In this document: positions 3,402 through 6,794 of the stretch, one piece after another | Numbering within the stretch: position 1 is the stretch's first letter | Layout: each line of letters begins with the position of its first letter | Virus record (IMG/VR): IMGVR_UViG_2663763232_000009 | DNA length: 11,394 nucleotides | Strand: one strand, 5' to 3' | Origin: a virus | Taxonomy: Duplodnaviria > Heunggongvirae > Uroviricota > Caudoviricetes | Notes under the pieces: model-generated | What the model was told of the DNA's origin: nothing | The model's database searches: none | The model's input: the letters and a program-made list of their open reading frames with translations, nothing else | Program-made: the position numbers and the translations under genes

Positions 3402-6400
3402 ATGGAAAGAAAAAACGCCAACATTGACGATGTTATAAGGACAGTTGAAACCGCCAGCGCAAAAGAGCTGGAAGAGCTTGCAGGTATCCGGGAAGCTGTT
3501 GAAGATTTGAAAGGGGGACGCGTTGCAACTGTTGATCCTGTCTCTCGCAGCGTGTCGGCATTAAATCGCATAATCGAAAATTCCCGGCCTGACTTTGTGG
3601 CCAAAGCGCCATCCGTAGACCCTATTGTTGACGCAATGAAACGGCTTAATTTAGGGGACGTTTCTCGTGTAGTTCAGGAGGATGTTGCTCTACAGGAACC
3701 GCAGGCCAAATCAACTACGCGAAAGGGTAAAAAACGACGCAAGAAGGCTATAACAGAAGATGTAAAGGTGCAACGGACCGAAGCAGCCGAACACGCTCGC
3801 GAAATGTTCGGTCAAAAAGGCGGTGCGCAAAAAAGCCAAAACCAACGCGATGCGCGTGGTCGTTTTATTGGAAAGTCAGGGAGTAAGGCCGCAGCGGAAG
3901 ATGCCCGTGCTGAACGTGCTGAAAAGGACAGGCGCAAAGAGGATGATGAGCGTCTAAATGCTGAATCAGGTTTATTAAAAAAACTGTCAAAAGTAGCTGA
4001 AGGCATAGGTAACCCTTCAGAGACTCGTGCCGTCGATGCGTTAGGTTATGCCGTTGCTGGTCCATTGTGGGCCGCAGGGAAGGAGCTTGGCGGGATATCA
4101 AAAGAAGTTGGTGGATCGCTTAATGGTGCCAGAAAGTCTATTGCCGATGTGATTCGTGGCAATGACGATAACAGCCGTAGAAAAGGTTTTTTTAGGCGTA
4201 AATCGCAAAATAGTGCCGATGTCGTTCAGGTTAACACCCAAAAACGGACGGTTCAGGAACTTCAGGAGCAGACCAGCGAAATTAAAGAGGGCAATGACAA
4301 GATTCTCAGCGCCCTTGATCAGATAGCCAAAAACACCGGGAAAAAGAAGGGCGGCTTGCTGTCCAAATTATTTAGCCTGTTAGGGAAGGGGGCCGGTGGC
4401 GTCGCGTCGTTGTTAATGGGGCGTGGCATGCTGAAAAAAGCTGGAGCACTCGCTTTTGGCGCTCTGGGGGCAAAGAAACTTGTAGGAATGCTACGCGGTG
4501 GTGGCAAGAAGACTCTCGCCCATGAAGGCGGAGATTTGGCTGCCCGGGCAGCAGGTAAACTTGGATTAAAGGCAGTTGGTAAAGGGGCGTTACGCGCAAT
4601 TCCCCTGGTCGGCACAGTGGCTGGAGGTATTTATGATGCGGTAACCGGTTGGAATGATACAGAAGCGCAACGTCGAGCGTTTGGGCTTAAATCAGGACAA
4701 GATCCATCATTCCAGCAAAAAGCCGCTTATACGTTAGCTAATGTTCTTGATATGGGGGGACTTGTATCTGGTATTAGCAGCGCCATTGGTGAGGTTCTCA
4801 AATCACTTGGATTTGAGGATATCGGCAATATGTTGCAATCATTTTCGACGGAAAGTATTGCCCAGGCCATTGATAGTGGGATTACCAACTTAGAAACATA
4901 TATTTCTAACCTTGGCGACACGATTTCTACCAAGTTCGATGATTACACAGCAAAGATTGGTGATGCTGTTTCAGCATGGTTTAGCGATACATCTAATAAG
5001 CTGCTTGAAAAGCTGGATGCCATCAAAGACTTCTTTACTGTCGATAACCTGAAACAGGTTTTCAGTGATGCAATTGATAGTGCAATTGATTTCATTAAGA
5101 ACCCAGGGAAACACATTAAAGAGGCGGCTGGTAATATTTGGGATGGGGTTAAAAATTTACCCGGTAAAGCATTAGATGCAGCGGTTGATGCCGTTAAAAA
5201 TACCCCTGCGGCAATGATTGTATCAAAAATACCCAATCCGATCGGCGAGGCTAATGCGAAAGAAATCACTCCAGAGTTAAAAGCTCCGGTTAATAGCCAC
5301 CAGGAGACGTCTAATTCTAAAACTGAATCCGATGCCAAACAGAGTAATATTGCTACCCGCGTGATAAATGCGGCACTGGACACAGCGAAAGATAGCAATA
5401 AAACAGTTAAACAAACTGCCAATCAGATTATCAATGCAAATGCCGTAGAAACGGGCAATCGCGCGTTGCAGAAAATTGATAAAGCTATTGGTCAAAATAG
5501 CTCGTCATCATCGTCGCGTAATACCACCGGCACTGGGAATGACATTCAGAAAGCTGCTGATACCTACAATAATGGCAACTTAGATGTAAAAGTCGGAAGC
5601 CTTGGCGCTGAAGGTAAGGCAAATCTCGATAAGTTAGCTCCGTATTTTGCTGAACTAGAGAATAAATATGGTCTTCCTGAAGGCACTCTTTACGCGATTG
5701 CTGCAACTGAATCTGGTGGTAATCCATACGCAAAATCCCAAACTGGTGCTCTAGGAATGTTTCAGTTCACGGGCATTGCTCGTGAAGAGACTGGCTTAGC
5801 TGAAGGTGAATCGTTTGATCCTGTGAAATCGGCAGAAGCTGCGGCTCTTCTCATGAGCAAGTATCTGAAGCAAGCCAATGGAGACTTAAACGAGGCCATC
5901 ACTGCATATAACGCTGGGTTTGGCACTATTAATAAGTGGAAAAAAGGCACCGGTGACTTATCGAAGGAAAACCGTGAGTACGCGATCAAGGTCAATACTC
6001 ATCGTGCTCGCTATTTAGGTGGTGAAATCTATACACCTGGGGCAGGAGCACAGGGTGGGGCGCAATATGGAGTGAGGGGACCACTGCCTGATAACGCCGT
6101 TATCGATCAGTCTACTGGTCTGGCGTTTACCCCTGGTGATAGCCCGTTTGAGAAAGGCGGTCTGGTAGACAAAATCGGCAATGCTGTTGGCGTTAACGAT
6201 CTGGTCAACAAATTCATGAATGGCCGGGGGATGCGTCGAGAAGTCGTTCAGGGAACGCTAGAAGAACGTGCACGAGGGAAGGGGACCGCAACAGCAGCTG
6301 GCAATGTGTATGTTGATACCCCGATGCCAGTTGAAGAGGCGCGTCCGGTGGCCAACAACTCAAGTTACTTTGACCAGCTCGGCGCACAAATGGGGATTGA

Positions 6401-6794
6401 TGGACTATTCGATAAACTCCGCAACTCGCCGGGGATGCGGAAAAATAATGCGCCTGAACCAGCCTCCACGTCCCTGGTGACGACTGCCGCCAACGATTTG
6501 CAGCAACCAACCGGTCGTATGCAGATAGACGGACAGGTTATTAGTGACCTTGGCGGCTCCGGTGCCAAGCCGACAATGCAGTTGGCTGATAATACCGTTT
6601 CACTTGATGGTGAAACGAAGCGGCTGTTTGCGCAGATGACCTCATTGCTTGCCAGGATTGAAGAGCACACTAAAGACTCGGCGAAAGGCCAGGGAACTGT
6701 CGTAAAGGTCAGCACGCCTCAACCGGGCGTTATGCGCACGGTACCACTGTCAATTGATGATCCGTTGATGAATGACTACGCGAGAGTTGATTGA
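3402..6794 (+). CDS. sit: Tail tape measure protein with an internal lytic transglycosylase (SLT) domain and a Gly/Ala-rich hydrophobic segment
   Basis: 1130-aa ORF directly after the chaperone-position gene. It has a charged, helical N-terminal region; a Gly/Ala/Leu-rich segment at about aa 313-415 (glycine-zipper-like); and a family-1 lytic transglycosylase signature (AATESGGNPYAKSQTGALGMFQF ... AITAYNAGFGTINKW) at about aa 750-870. The symbol sit (structural injection transglycosylase, P1) is offered from recalled similarity in size and domain content to P1 Sit; it is not verified by alignment. Confidence 0.85.
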   Translation: MERKNANIDDVIRTVETASAKELEELAGIREAVEDLKGGRVATVDPVSRSVSALNRIIENSRPDFVAKAPSVDPIVDAMKRLNLGDVSRVVQEDVALQEPQAKSTTRKGKKRRKKAITEDVKVQRTEAAEHAREMFGQKGGAQKSQNQRDARGRFIGKSGSKAAAEDARAERAEKDRRKEDDERLNAESGLLKKLSKVAEGIGNPSETRAVDALGYAVAGPLWAAGKELGGISKEVGGSLNGARKSIADVIRGNDDNSRRKGFFRRKSQNSADVVQVNTQKRTVQELQEQTSEIKEGNDKILSALDQIAKNTGKKKGGLLSKLFSLLGKGAGGVASLLMGRGMLKKAGALAFGALGAKKLVGMLRGGGKKTLAHEGGDLAARAAGKLGLKAVGKGALRAIPLVGTVAGGIYDAVTGWNDTEAQRRAFGLKSGQDPSFQQKAAYTLANVLDMGGLVSGISSAIGEVLKSLGFEDIGNMLQSFSTESIAQAIDSGITNLETYISNLGDTISTKFDDYTAKIGDAVSAWFSDTSNKLLEKLDAIKDFFTVDNLKQVFSDAIDSAIDFIKNPGKHIKEAAGNIWDGVKNLPGKALDAAVDAVKNTPAAMIVSKIPNPIGEANAKEITPELKAPVNSHQETSNSKTESDAKQSNIATRVINAALDTAKDSNKTVKQTANQIINANAVETGNRALQKIDKAIGQNSSSSSSRNTTGTGNDIQKAADTYNNGNLDVKVGSLGAEGKANLDKLAPYFAELENKYGLPEGTLYAIAATESGGNPYAKSQTGALGMFQFTGIAREETGLAEGESFDPVKSAEAAALLMSKYLKQANGDLNEAITAYNAGFGTINKWKKGTGDLSKENREYAIKVNTHRARYLGGEIYTPGAGAQGGAQYGVRGPLPDNAVIDQSTGLAFTPGDSPFEKGGLVDKIGNAVGVNDLVNKFMNGRGMRREVVQGTLEERARGKGTATAAGNVYVDTPMPVEEARPVANNSSYFDQLGAQMGIDGLFDKLRNSPGMRKNNAPEPASTSLVTTAANDLQQPTGRMQIDGQVISDLGGSGAKPTMQLADNTVSLDGETKRLFAQMTSLLARIEEHTKDSAKGQGTVVKVSTPQPGVMRTVPLSIDDPLMNDYARVD
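5655..6020 (+). other. Lytic transglycosylase (SLT, GH23-like) domain embedded in the tape measure protein
   Basis: Motifs seen in the translation: catalytic-Glu motif T-E-S-G-G-N-P, the G-A-L-G-M-F-Q-F motif, and the A-Y-N-A-G-x-G motif, with spacing typical of SLT domains. Confidence 0.8.

Follow-up and report, generated by a model that had tools for sequence, protein, structure and literature searches.

Sit of a P1/P7-type phage-plasmid: a probable tail tape measure protein with an embedded lytic transglycosylase domain

T5 Pb2 carries a peptidase-type module together with hydrophobic, membrane-active segments, and it shares with mycobacteriophage TM4 Tmp and with P1 Sit the character of a very long tail-lumen protein whose C-terminal part contains a peptidoglycan-degrading module. 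Sit was previously compared with these two proteins (PMC9024508), although both belong to siphophages, no sequence relationship between them and Sit was found, and Sit differs from Pb2 in having a GH23 transglycosylase and no predicted transmembrane (TM) helix. The GenBank label of P1 Sit, in use since 2004, is ‘structural injection transglycosylase; putative tail ruler’; papers from 2022–2026 name the protein tape measure protein (TMP) (PMC9024508, PMC12810830, PMC10695390). The protein has been detected in virions by LC-MS/MS (PMC9024508) and sit is essential by CRISPRi (PMC10695390); none of the P1 cryo-EM maps resolves Sit (PMC12810830).

Here, we analysed an 11,394-nucleotide stretch of viral DNA (the window; IMG/VR record IMGVR_UViG_2663763232_000009), whose longest ORF opens with ATG and encodes a protein of 1130 residues (Table 1). 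The gene is 98.0% identical at the nucleotide level to P7 sit and 95.4% identical to P1 sit, with 100% coverage in both cases, and its product matches phrog_2533 end to end (residues 1–1130 of 1130). We identify it as sit from a phage-plasmid of the P1/P7 type, an orthologue proper rather than a mere look-alike. P7 Sit (AAQ07509) is equal in length, whereas P1 Sit (AAQ14011) has 1140 residues because its SLT domain carries a 10-residue loop, absent here, that separates the E-S motif from the GLMQ-type motif; further differences from P1 Sit are scattered C-terminal to that domain (alignment A1). The original prediction had proposed this ORF, likened its product to P1 Sit and judged the arrangement mostly known, and in all three respects it agrees with the alignments, the 2004 label and the later papers: a Sit protein with an embedded transglycosylase is already described, so the observation is correct but ordinary.

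The gene order pmgC-tub-pmgB-sit-pmgA-bplA-16-R-S is shared gene by gene with P1 (AF234172) and P7 (AF503408), with matching neighbours and promoter, and the operon runs LPsit-pmgC-tub-pmgB-sit-pmgA-bplA-16, followed by LPs-R-S, as in the P1/P7 Sit group. Downstream of sit, pmgA and bplA form a block of baseplate genes (6791..8580, + strand), the wedge roles of whose products have been described (PMC12810830). Upstream, pmgB encodes the proposed tape-measure chaperone (PMC9024508) and is essential by CRISPRi (PMC10695390). With a putative chaperone gene before it and baseplate or hub genes after it, sit occupies the position expected of a tape measure gene in a tail module. In seven other lineages (JK004, D6, Pori-4, L086, L089, L090 and L091) a sit-like gene is likewise flanked by a pmgB-like gene and baseplate genes, and in Pori-4 the slot is the canonical one, with tube-junction, hub, spike and wedge genes coming after it.

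Table 1. Features of the sit region; nucleotide positions are those of the window.
Feature	Position (nt)	Strand	Residues	Basis and remarks
Late promoter LPsit	1186..1204	+		All 19 nt match the LPsit annotation of P1 (AF234172); drives the pmgC-tub-pmgB-sit... operon
pmgB	2439..3320	+		phrog_1854, P1 annotation; tail-morphogenesis gene directly 5' of sit
Candidate site of programmed +1 frameshifting in pmgB (CCC_UUU_CGG)	3216..3224	+		Single in-frame TTT_C of pmgB
pmgB +1-frame extension	3220..3390	+		56 codons and stop; ends 11 nt before the sit ATG
sit CDS	3402..6794	+	1130 aa and stop	ORF list, translation; ATG start; orthologue of P1/P7 Sit
99-aa unit (DLKGGRVATVDP...)	3504..3800	+	35–133	Alignment A1
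Gly/Ala/Leu/Lys-rich segment	4338..4646	+	313–415	Composition
Conserved non-enzymatic core	4338..4976	+	~313–525	Common to distant Sit-like proteins (including tblastn)
17-aa unit EANAKEITPELKAPVNS, one copy	5247..5297	+	616–632	Alignment A1
Asn/Ser/Thr/Ala-rich region	5322..5636	+	641–745	Between core and SLT domain; SSSSSS run
SLT / GH23 family-1 lytic transglycosylase domain	5643..5972	+	748–857	PF01464, PDB matches, model, Foldseek
TESGGNP motif	5706..5726	+	769–775	
Glu770 codon, predicted catalytic acid of E-S motif	5709..5711	+	770	Invariant E-S column in alignment A4
SLT-loop site S779/Q780	5736..5741	+	779/780	10-aa loop TLTRSPNGKL absent; alignment A1 columns 981–990
GALGMFQF motif	5745..5768	+	782–789	
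AYNAGFG motif	5904..5924	+	835–841	
C-terminal region	6012..6791	+	871–1130	Gly/Pro-rich, mostly non-helical in model
pmgA	6791..7150	+		gp25-like wedge; phrog_1896; overlaps sit stop
bplA	7147..8580	+		gp6/J-like wedge; Pfam Gp6-like_1st and Baseplate_J; phrog_1369

The identification of the SLT domain is solid, the domain having passed all the sequence and fold tests applied. Pfam PF01464 matches aa 748–857 with E=2.3e-27 and 95.3 bits (cut-off 21.3) over profile positions 2–115 of 117, and the motifs TESGGNP, GALGMFQF and AYNAGFG lie as originally placed, at about aa 750–870. All four family-1 signature motifs are present, including the catalytic Glu, G-(L/M)-(M/F)-Q, A-Y-N-x-G and the downstream Tyr. 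Glu770 aligns with the Glu-Ser of MltC (IESSFNP), and alignment A4 (21 sequences, 31–45% identical to the query) shows no variation at E770, S771, G785, Q788, Y836, N837, G839 and Y860. Sequence matches in the PDB are to MltC and MltD. The domain model (pLDDT 90.5, pTM 0.85) supports a goose-lysozyme-like all-α fold, and a Foldseek search with it matched MltD, Slt, Slt70, MltC, MltE, MltF and T7 gp16, with probability 1.00 for the first four (query TM-score 0.63–0.69) and for T7 gp16. While the fold and the four motifs are common to the bacterial enzymes Slt70, MltC, MltD and MltE (PF01464, CAZy GH23), in Sit the domain is embedded in a 1130-residue phage structural protein that, unlike the bacterial family-1 enzymes, lacks a signal peptide, a lipobox, a LysM module and a superhelical U-domain. 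Among phage domains of solved structure, the nearest relative is the SLT domain of T7 gp16 (PDB 7k5c, 9jyy), a virion-borne ejected protein in which the transglycosylase domain is N-terminal (31% identical in a structural alignment of ~128 columns, TM-score 0.57–0.60). Sit is probably muralytic, and as a family-1 lytic transglycosylase it would split MurNAc-GlcNAc bonds and yield 1,6-anhydroMurNAc; no muralytic assay of it was found reported in the P1 literature.

Many representatives 900–1450 residues long match Sit over the conserved core alone (aa ~313–525). D6 orf40 and Pori-4 gp132, Sit-like proteins encoded after a pmgB-like gene, have a core at aa ~357–570 in common with Sit, with 44% identity over aa 379–523 in D6 and 28% over aa 357–570 in the Pseudomonas phage Pori-4 protein. 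D6 orf40 additionally shares N-proximal and C-terminal stretches, the last ~100 residues being conserved at 27% identity over aa 1029–1124. Unlike Sit, neither protein has a Pfam SLT match, and D6-type proteins contain another module, matched by phrog_873 ‘endolysin’ and by the C-terminal portion of phrog_2276, a family labelled ‘tail length tape measure protein’. Since these relatives have no Pfam SLT match, and the D6 type carries a different module on a related scaffold, the enzyme module appears exchangeable within one Sit-like scaffold. Elsewhere in Sit, aa 641–745 contain 13% Ala, 13% Asn, 10% Thr and 10% Ser, and aa 871–1130, with 30% helix in low-confidence secondary structure, have no Pfam match.

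Natural Sit alleles span 1130–1297 residues (alignment A1). The 99-residue unit occurs in single copy here and in P1 and as two tandem copies in the 1229–1297-residue alleles; among 76 P1-like loci in IMG/VR, one copy is present in 57 and two in 17. The 17-residue unit EANAKEITPELKAPVNS forms a tandem repeat of 2–5 copies in other alleles (alignment A1, IMG/VR loci), and the TLTRSPNGKL loop inside the SLT domain is carried by P1 Sit and many alleles and is missing here and in P7. With one 99-residue unit, one 17-residue unit and no loop, Sit here is the shortest combination among the aligned alleles; no internal DNA repeat was found in its gene. Tandem-duplication length polymorphism is typical of tape measure genes, so its occurrence in the sit family supports the tape-measure reading.

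The one new thing near sit appears to be a conserved candidate +1 frameshift site in pmgB, unannotated and apparently undescribed. At the candidate site tRNA-Phe would slip from UUU to UUC ahead of CGG, a codon rare in E. coli, giving a predicted product of 316 residues, as against 293 unshifted, in which the +1 extension would replace a 32-residue zero-frame tail. The TTT_C site of pmgB is found in eight lineages including Pseudomonas phage Pori-4, as CCC_TTT_CGN in six, CAG_TTT_CGG in JK004 and CGG_TTT_CAC in L090, and in all eight, which range from P1 of E. coli to a Pseudomonas phage of 200 kb, the shifted frame stops 3–25 nt before the sit start. The extension is intact in 79 of 80 P1-like loci in IMG/VR, its peptide is kept in D6 and Pori-4 beyond the point at which the zero frame ends, and substitutions past the pmgB stop are distributed 6/4/19 over the codon positions of the +1 frame, a third-position bias of the coding type. 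The arrangement recalls lambda gpG/gpGT (Xu, Hendrix & Duda 2004), also encoded directly 5' of the tape measure gene, with an overlapping shifted frame that nearly reaches that gene. However, the pmgB shift would be +1 (or -2) at UUU_C, whereas that of the lambda G/GT type is -1 at a slippery heptamer, and pmgB has no sequence similarity to lambda G/GT and only a short extension of 55 residues. We lean towards the view that two PmgB forms (293 and 316 residues), made through the conserved CCC_UUU_CGN +1 frameshift, serve Sit as a chaperone pair of the G/GT type, and this chaperone-like signature in pmgB would support the tape-measure reading of its neighbour.

No tape-measure NCBIfam profile matched whole Sit at E<=1, nor did any tape-measure Pfam profile match the 741 N-terminal non-SLT residues (aa 1–741) at E<=10; such models include PF10145 and TIGR01760. 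A ruler is expected to be proportional in length to the tail at about 1.5 Å per residue. The P1 tail tube consists of 53 rings of 40 Å, about 2100 Å (2120 Å) in all, with a lumen 40 Å in inner diameter (PMC10304247), whereas 1130 residues as α-helix reach 1695 Å and the ~745 N-terminal residues ~1120 Å. To reach from end to end, Sit would therefore have to average 1.88 Å per residue, or about 2.07 Å when the globular SLT domain is left aside. Because 1.88 Å per residue exceeds the α-helix, a plain α-helical ruler does not fit the length of Sit, and stretching to about 1.9–2.1 Å per residue would be needed. Sit's N-terminal two-thirds are mostly helical according to Quick2D, and the 2022 case for a match between ~750 helical residues and the tail presupposed a tail of 120 nm (PMC9024508). 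Our full-length model is unusable (pLDDT 34) and its helix content, 69% in aa 1–745, is only indicative; going by this model, the ~40% of residues that are non-helical could, if extended, supply the missing length. Three folded SLT domains side by side may be too bulky for the lumen. The term tape measure, used in the original prediction, is thus backed by the current literature but by neither a family profile nor the helix length, and we infer, rather than observe, that Sit sets tail length.

The misfit in length and the lack of a family match favour a different role, in which Sit is an ejected injection protein delivering a wall-cutting enzyme, perhaps also a DNA conduit, and tail length depends on something else, or on Sit in concert with a further factor, for example gp6. 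Indeed, historic P1 gene 6 mutants have tails of variable length (PMC9024508), no report of differing tail lengths was found in the literature for natural sit alleles up to 167 residues apart, and no length-mutant study of Sit was found in the P1 literature. We nevertheless consider this unlikely. Sit is the sole P1 protein of suitable size, gp6 being a 338-residue, gp27/Mu gp44-like hub protein (PMC9024508), sit-like genes fill the tape-measure slot in distant myophages, a chaperone-type candidate frameshift gene lies directly upstream, and extended non-helical stretches could cover the missing length. In addition, the termini of the tail terminator are ordered only with the TMP present and disordered once it leaves (PMC12810830), implying that Sit reaches the proximal end of the tail. 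A head-internal core protein like T7 gp16 is a far more remote prospect, to which we give almost no credence: besides the likeness to the gp16 transglycosylase domain, there is a match of phrog_342 (‘internal virion protein with endolysin domain’) to aa 748–865, and MH422554 and ON018986 carry the labels ‘protein inside capsid D’ and ‘internal (core) protein’, but gp16 belongs to a podophage, which keeps it in the head core, the likeness of gp16 to Sit ends at the domain boundaries, sit lies within a tail and baseplate late operon, and the TMP is located in the tail and baseplate and lost on contraction, when the head proteins DarA and Hdf stay behind (PMC12810830).

The Gly/Ala/Leu-rich segment had been described as hydrophobic and glycine-zipper-like, and as a membrane-insertion or channel-forming region. 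Its composition is as described (24% Gly and 17% Leu, where the whole protein has 11% and 8%, together with 17% Ala and 14% Lys), and because it is invariant across ten alleles except at aa 357, 359 and 372 (alignment A1), and opens the core kept in many long phage tail proteins, it is, as far as conservation can tell, functionally important. By analogy with T5 Pb2, presented as a fusogenic and muralytic tape measure in a title cited in PMC9024508, the segment might insert in the inner membrane after ejection as a DNA channel, and its unusual composition, its near-total invariance and the moderately hydrophobic stretches at aa 319–340, 392–415 and 444–466 would suit such a role. The wording hydrophobic and zipper-like did not hold, however. 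On simple scales (Kyte-Doolittle and Hessa, rather than a trained predictor) no TM helix is predicted in Sit: the best 19-residue Kyte-Doolittle mean is 1.35 (aa 448–466; usual threshold about 1.6), with peaks of 1.24 and 1.14 inside the segment, and Hessa insertion energies sum to at least +7.2 kcal/mol. The segment contains 18 Lys/Arg in 103 residues, its five (G/A/S)xxxGxxx(G/A/S/T) motifs compare with 4.5 +/- 1.9 in 2000 same-residue shuffles, 48% of which reach that count, and its hydrophobic moment of 0.29 is not raised over the 0.26 of the remaining protein. Packing in the lumen or chaperone binding would explain the conservation equally well, and we regard a membrane channel as conceivable but doubtful.

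Taken as a whole, the evidence is best explained by Sit being the P1/P7 tail-lumen tape measure with an ejected wall-cutting transglycosylase, a reading to which we assign a probability of roughly 0.8. Low-resolution density is seen in the P1 hub, and the TMP is expelled on contraction (PMC12810830). Sit, a virion protein, would be made from LPsit together with tube-initiator, baseplate and tail-fibre gene products. During assembly it would most likely occupy the tube lumen, its C-terminal part sitting in the baseplate hub and its N-terminus reaching the tail terminator, while the tube polymerises around it. Sheath contraction would then expel Sit ahead of the DNA, and the SLT domain, with Glu770, would cut peptidoglycan glycan strands locally and let the tip of the tube and the DNA cross the wall; in this way the enzyme domain of Sit may stand in for the lysozyme domain absent from the P1 spike protein gp5. 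If Sit is a stretched ruler, natural alleles of 1130–1297 residues should give tails differing by several tube rings. Should the pmgB frameshift and the stretching of Sit both prove true, the tape-measure system of P1-like myophages would depart from the textbook in two apparently undescribed ways, in chaperone decoding and in ruler stretch.

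The open reading frame singled out in the original prediction was confirmed at its stated coordinates and length (strand and start codon in the table below), and by DNA identity it is the sit gene of a P1/P7-type phage-plasmid, with 98.0% identity to P7 sit (1130 aa) and 95.4% to P1 sit (1140 aa), in both cases over 100% of its length. The order of the P1 late operon is kept across the whole window, and a 454-kb IncHI1B/IncY plasmid of E. coli ATCC 98082 matches positions 1-11314 at 100% identity. The sit finding anchors the window as the P1/P7 late operon for tail and baseplate. 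The arrangement had been described as mostly known, which is accurate; in fact the protein is Sit itself, and the finding is already on record in GenBank (2004) and in papers from 2022-2026.

Features of the window and their coordinates
Feature	Window coordinates (nt)	Strand	Remarks
simC	214-1026
LPsit late promoter	1186-1204		identical to P1
pmgC	1236-1802
tub	1813-2424
pmgB	2439-3320
UUU_C site	3216-3224		CCC_UUU_CGG; sole in-frame TTT_C in pmgB
Candidate frameshift region	3216-3390		pmgB 3' end and pmgB-sit spacer; equivalents L003 4826-4997, L004 (phage D6) 4406-4586, L005 (Pseudomonas phage Pori-4) 7082-7280
sit	3402-6794	+	ATG start, 1130 aa
99-aa unit of sit, aa 35-133	3504-3800		one copy here and in P1, two in long alleles
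17-aa unit of sit, EANAKEITPELKAPVNS, aa 616-632	5247-5297		1-5 copies among alleles
10-aa loop site in SLT domain, between E-S and GLMQ-type motifs	5738/5739		loop present in P1, absent here and in P7
pmgA	6791-7150
bplA	7147-8580
gene 16	8577-9416
R	9495-9929
S	9941 to window end

The window opens with the final 58 nt of an IS1 element (…AAACACTATCAATAAGTTGGAGTCATTACC) that has inserted into the sim region; P1 similarity starts only at nt 53, and the short IS1 end matches thousands of plasmids. The sim superimmunity region that follows (59-1184) is AT-rich (32-36% GC vs about 47% elsewhere) and matches P1; P7 does not match and carries upf50.5 and upf50.0 in its place. Since the sim region is of P1 type but sit is nearer to P7, the element is a mosaic. 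At the other end (11299-11394) the invertible C-segment has its cix crossover core (CCTTGGTTTGGGAGAA) at 11299, and similarity to P1, P7 and the otherwise identical plasmid ends at 11314, so the variable part of the tail-fibre gene S is of another orientation or type here. P7 names differ for the neighbours of sit (tubA, tubB and tubC for pmgC, tub and pmgB; bplB for pmgA). PmgB, the proposed tape-measure chaperone, and its D6 homologue (L004 3644-4465) score 17.2 and 23.8 bits, respectively, against Pfam PF12322 ('T4 bacteriophage base plate protein', cut-off 24.5), near-threshold matches that hint at a link to a T4 baseplate-assembly protein.

The predicted SLT lytic transglycosylase domain of Sit is fully supported by profile, alignment and structural model. 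All three quoted motifs are present (TESGGNP, aa 769-775; GALGMFQF, aa 782-789; AYNAGFG, aa 835-841), and PF01464 matches aa 748-857 over nearly the entire profile (E=2.3e-27, 95.3 bits vs a cut-off of 21.3). An alignment of this region with 20 diverse relatives, 31-45% identical to it, leaves E770, S771, G785, Q788, Y836, N837, G839 and Y860 invariant, residues that make up the family-1 lytic transglycosylase signatures (E-S, G-L-M-Q-type, A-Y-N-x-G and Tyr); a HMMER search against PDB sequences placed the Sit E-S on that of MltC. The AlphaFold2 model of the domain is confident (pLDDT 90.5, pTM 0.85), and Foldseek matched it to MltD, Slt, Slt70, MltC, MltE and MltF, as well as to the transglycosylase domain of gp16, an ejectosome protein of T7 (31% identity), a likeness that stops at the domain borders. 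This resemblance to gp16 accounts for stray records in which P1-like sit genes carry labels such as 'protein inside capsid D' and 'internal (core) protein'; naming among matched records is inconsistent, and includes 'lytic tail fiber protein', 'endolysin' and 'hypothetical protein'.

A role for Sit as the ruler that sets tail length is likely. The P1 GenBank record labels it 'putative structural injection transglycosylase; putative tail ruler', an older P1 deposit 'structural lytic transglycosylase'. Gonzales et al. 2022 (PMC9024508) found Sit in virions, designated it the tape measure protein (TMP), placed its SLT domain at ~750-900, and suggested that it substitutes for the lysozyme absent from the P1 spike gp5. 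A 2026 cryo-EM study (PMC12810830) also lists Sit as the TMP, unresolved in the map, with the TMP visible solely as low-resolution density in the hub and lost upon contraction, and CRISPRi knock-down of sit gives no plaques (PMC10695390). Gene order favours the same assignment: JK004, D6 and four further lineages, metagenomic or genomic, have a Sit-like gene between a pmgB-like gene and baseplate genes, and in Pori-4 the Sit-like gene sits in the exact tape-measure slot of myophages, ahead of the tube-junction, hub, spike and wedge genes.

The tape-measure part of the original prediction agrees with the literature, with synteny and with the frameshift evidence described below, but is numerically strained and finds no TMP profile match: the non-SLT parts of Sit gave none in Pfam or NCBIfam, even at permissive E-values. 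The P1 tube and sheath comprise 53 rings, each rising 40 Å, for a length of about 2100 Å around a 40 Å lumen (total length 245 nm, tube about 210 nm by cryo-EM; PMC10304247). As an α-helix (1.5 Å per residue) 1130 residues extend 1695 Å, and the N-terminal 745 residues about 1120 Å, so that spanning the tube needs 1.88 Å per residue on average, a figure that rises to about 2.07 Å when the globular SLT domain is left out. In PMC9024508 the ~750 helical residues were judged 'congruent' with a tail taken to be 120 nm long; for a tube of ~210 nm this published argument fails as stated. The gap closes, to about 2160 Å, if the ~40% of residues that are non-helical in a low-confidence model are extended at 3 Å per residue; that full-length AlphaFold2 model (10-sequence alignment, mean pLDDT 34, pTM 0.22) is a rough guide to secondary structure only, and was discarded as unusable for fold searches.

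The Gly/Ala/Leu-rich composition noted at aa 313-415 was reproduced (24% Gly, 17% Leu, 17% Ala, 14% Lys), but the membrane insertion and glycine zippers proposed for it were not borne out. On simple scales (Kyte-Doolittle, Hessa), the highest 19-residue Kyte-Doolittle mean anywhere in Sit is 1.35 and the minimum summed Hessa insertion energy +7.2 kcal/mol; the segment contains 18 Lys/Arg, and its five zipper motifs compare with 4.5 +/- 1.9 in shuffles. Given this low hydrophobicity, unfavourable energy, charge and chance-level zipper count, a classical transmembrane or zipper segment is unsupported. An amphipathic, antimicrobial-peptide-like character was also rejected (mean hydrophobic moment 0.29 vs 0.26 elsewhere). 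Every position of aa 313-415 but three is invariant among ten P1-like alleles, and an exhaustive scan through 1.8 billion representatives found aa ~313-525 as a separate module in the middle of many phage proteins of 900-1450 aa, among them D6 orf40 (44% identity to Sit over aa 379-523) and a protein of a 200-kb Pseudomonas phage (28% identity). Possible roles for this core are lumen packing, chaperone binding or membrane activity after ejection.

The Sit-like proteins of D6 and Pori-4 (L004 4480-8262; L005 7291-10806) have no SLT match in Pfam. D6-type proteins carry another module, which also occurs in phrog_873 'endolysin' and, C-terminally, in phrog_2276 'tail length tape measure protein'. 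The lytic part looks like a cassette that can be exchanged on a shared non-enzymatic core. A further compared locus, L087 (3001-8742; GCA_003057695.2, contig QBJC02000018.1), encodes a 913-aa protein with Sit core and SLT domain in a context odd for a tail protein: a divergent ParA-like partition gene lies ~1.1 kb upstream, an S-type pyocin/colicin DNase gene and its immunity gene lie just downstream, and no pmgB-like gene was called upstream.

Allele alignment places three indel sites in sit (table), of which the window carries the shortest combination among the aligned alleles; homologues in P1-like plasmids have 1229-1297 aa, giving an overall range of 1130-1297 aa with the window included. 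The locus search with the PmgB alignment returned only P1-like loci of 98-100% identity, which serve for allele counts and not for diversity; lineage diversity was drawn from contigs encoding representative proteins. Among IMG/VR P1-like loci the 99-aa unit is present once in 57 of 76 and twice in 17. No internal DNA repeats above chance-size matches were found in the window allele, repeats being confined to longer alleles. For phages with long alleles (phi456, SJ46) we found no published tail lengths.

Further support for Sit as the tape measure comes from a conserved signature in pmgB, for which a programmed +1 frameshift is the most economical reading, and which we put forward as a candidate. 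The +1 frame of pmgB is open from nt 3058 to nt 3390, ending 11 nt before the sit ATG. The same arrangement is found in P1, JK004, D6, Pori-4 and the loci L086, L089, L090 and L091, the +1 stop lying 3-25 nt upstream of the sit start across eight lineages. The encoded peptide follows the motif L.L.GW.TL..NL.L(Y/F)G.QP...LP.WRA...L...LK..R; peptides predicted from the +1 extension include WGLK, SYQTLVSNLVLYGGIPIQDAER and LTESYAFFLLEK. In D6 and Pori-4 the NNL motif can be encoded by the +1 frame alone, because the zero frame stops earlier there. An in-frame UUU_C marks the beginning of the conserved part in every lineage, as CCC_UUU_CGN in six of eight and as the variants CAG_UUU_CGG in JK004 and CGG_UUU_CAC in L090; it is kept even in Pori-4, whose protein shows no similarity to PmgB by BLAST. 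In each of four divergent lineages the open +1 run from this site ranks among the top 3-9% of background runs, and of 80 IMG/VR P1-like loci 79 keep the 56-codon frame intact. Over the 19 codons past the pmgB stop, the three P1-group lineages (window, JK004 and L086) differ 6, 4 and 19 times at codon positions 1, 2 and 3, a distribution that is a coding pattern.

UUU-pyrimidine sites are shift-prone and CGG is a rare codon in E. coli. In the proposed mechanism tRNA-Phe would slip from UUU to UUC before CGG (predicted junction ...LWVPF-GLPTSFHR), yielding a 316-aa form alongside the 293-aa PmgB, a pair that would be alike to the G/GT chaperones encoded upstream of tape measure genes. That a separate small gene encodes the +1 peptide is unlikely: where JK004 gene_9 has its Met, the window has Ile (ATA), and in D6 neither ATG, GTG nor TTG is seen in the +1 frame ahead of the conserved motif. 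A classical -1 frameshift was considered at three X_XXY_YYZ heptamers (nt 2453, 2570, 3161) and rejected, since the -1 frame is short (5-40 codons) and unconserved across lineages.

The candidate +1 frameshift is missing from the annotations of P1, P7 and D6, and no report of it was found in the papers searched. In D6 the annotated sit start (ATG 4480 in L004) overlaps the +1 extension of the pmgB-like gene, and the conserved Sit N-terminus (…IIDAIQEASTNELKALA) begins 132 nt downstream at TTG 4612, with GAGAGG in front; a frameshift in pmgB would therefore mean that the annotated D6 start is over-extended, and it is probably mis-called.

The natural length alleles of sit provide existing material for testing the ruler idea in P1, a workhorse phage. 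If the +1 frameshift is true, the rule of a frameshifted chaperone before the tape measure would reach P1-like myophages, with a different slip mechanism, and the annotations of P1, P7, D6 and thousands of P1-like plasmids would need correction.
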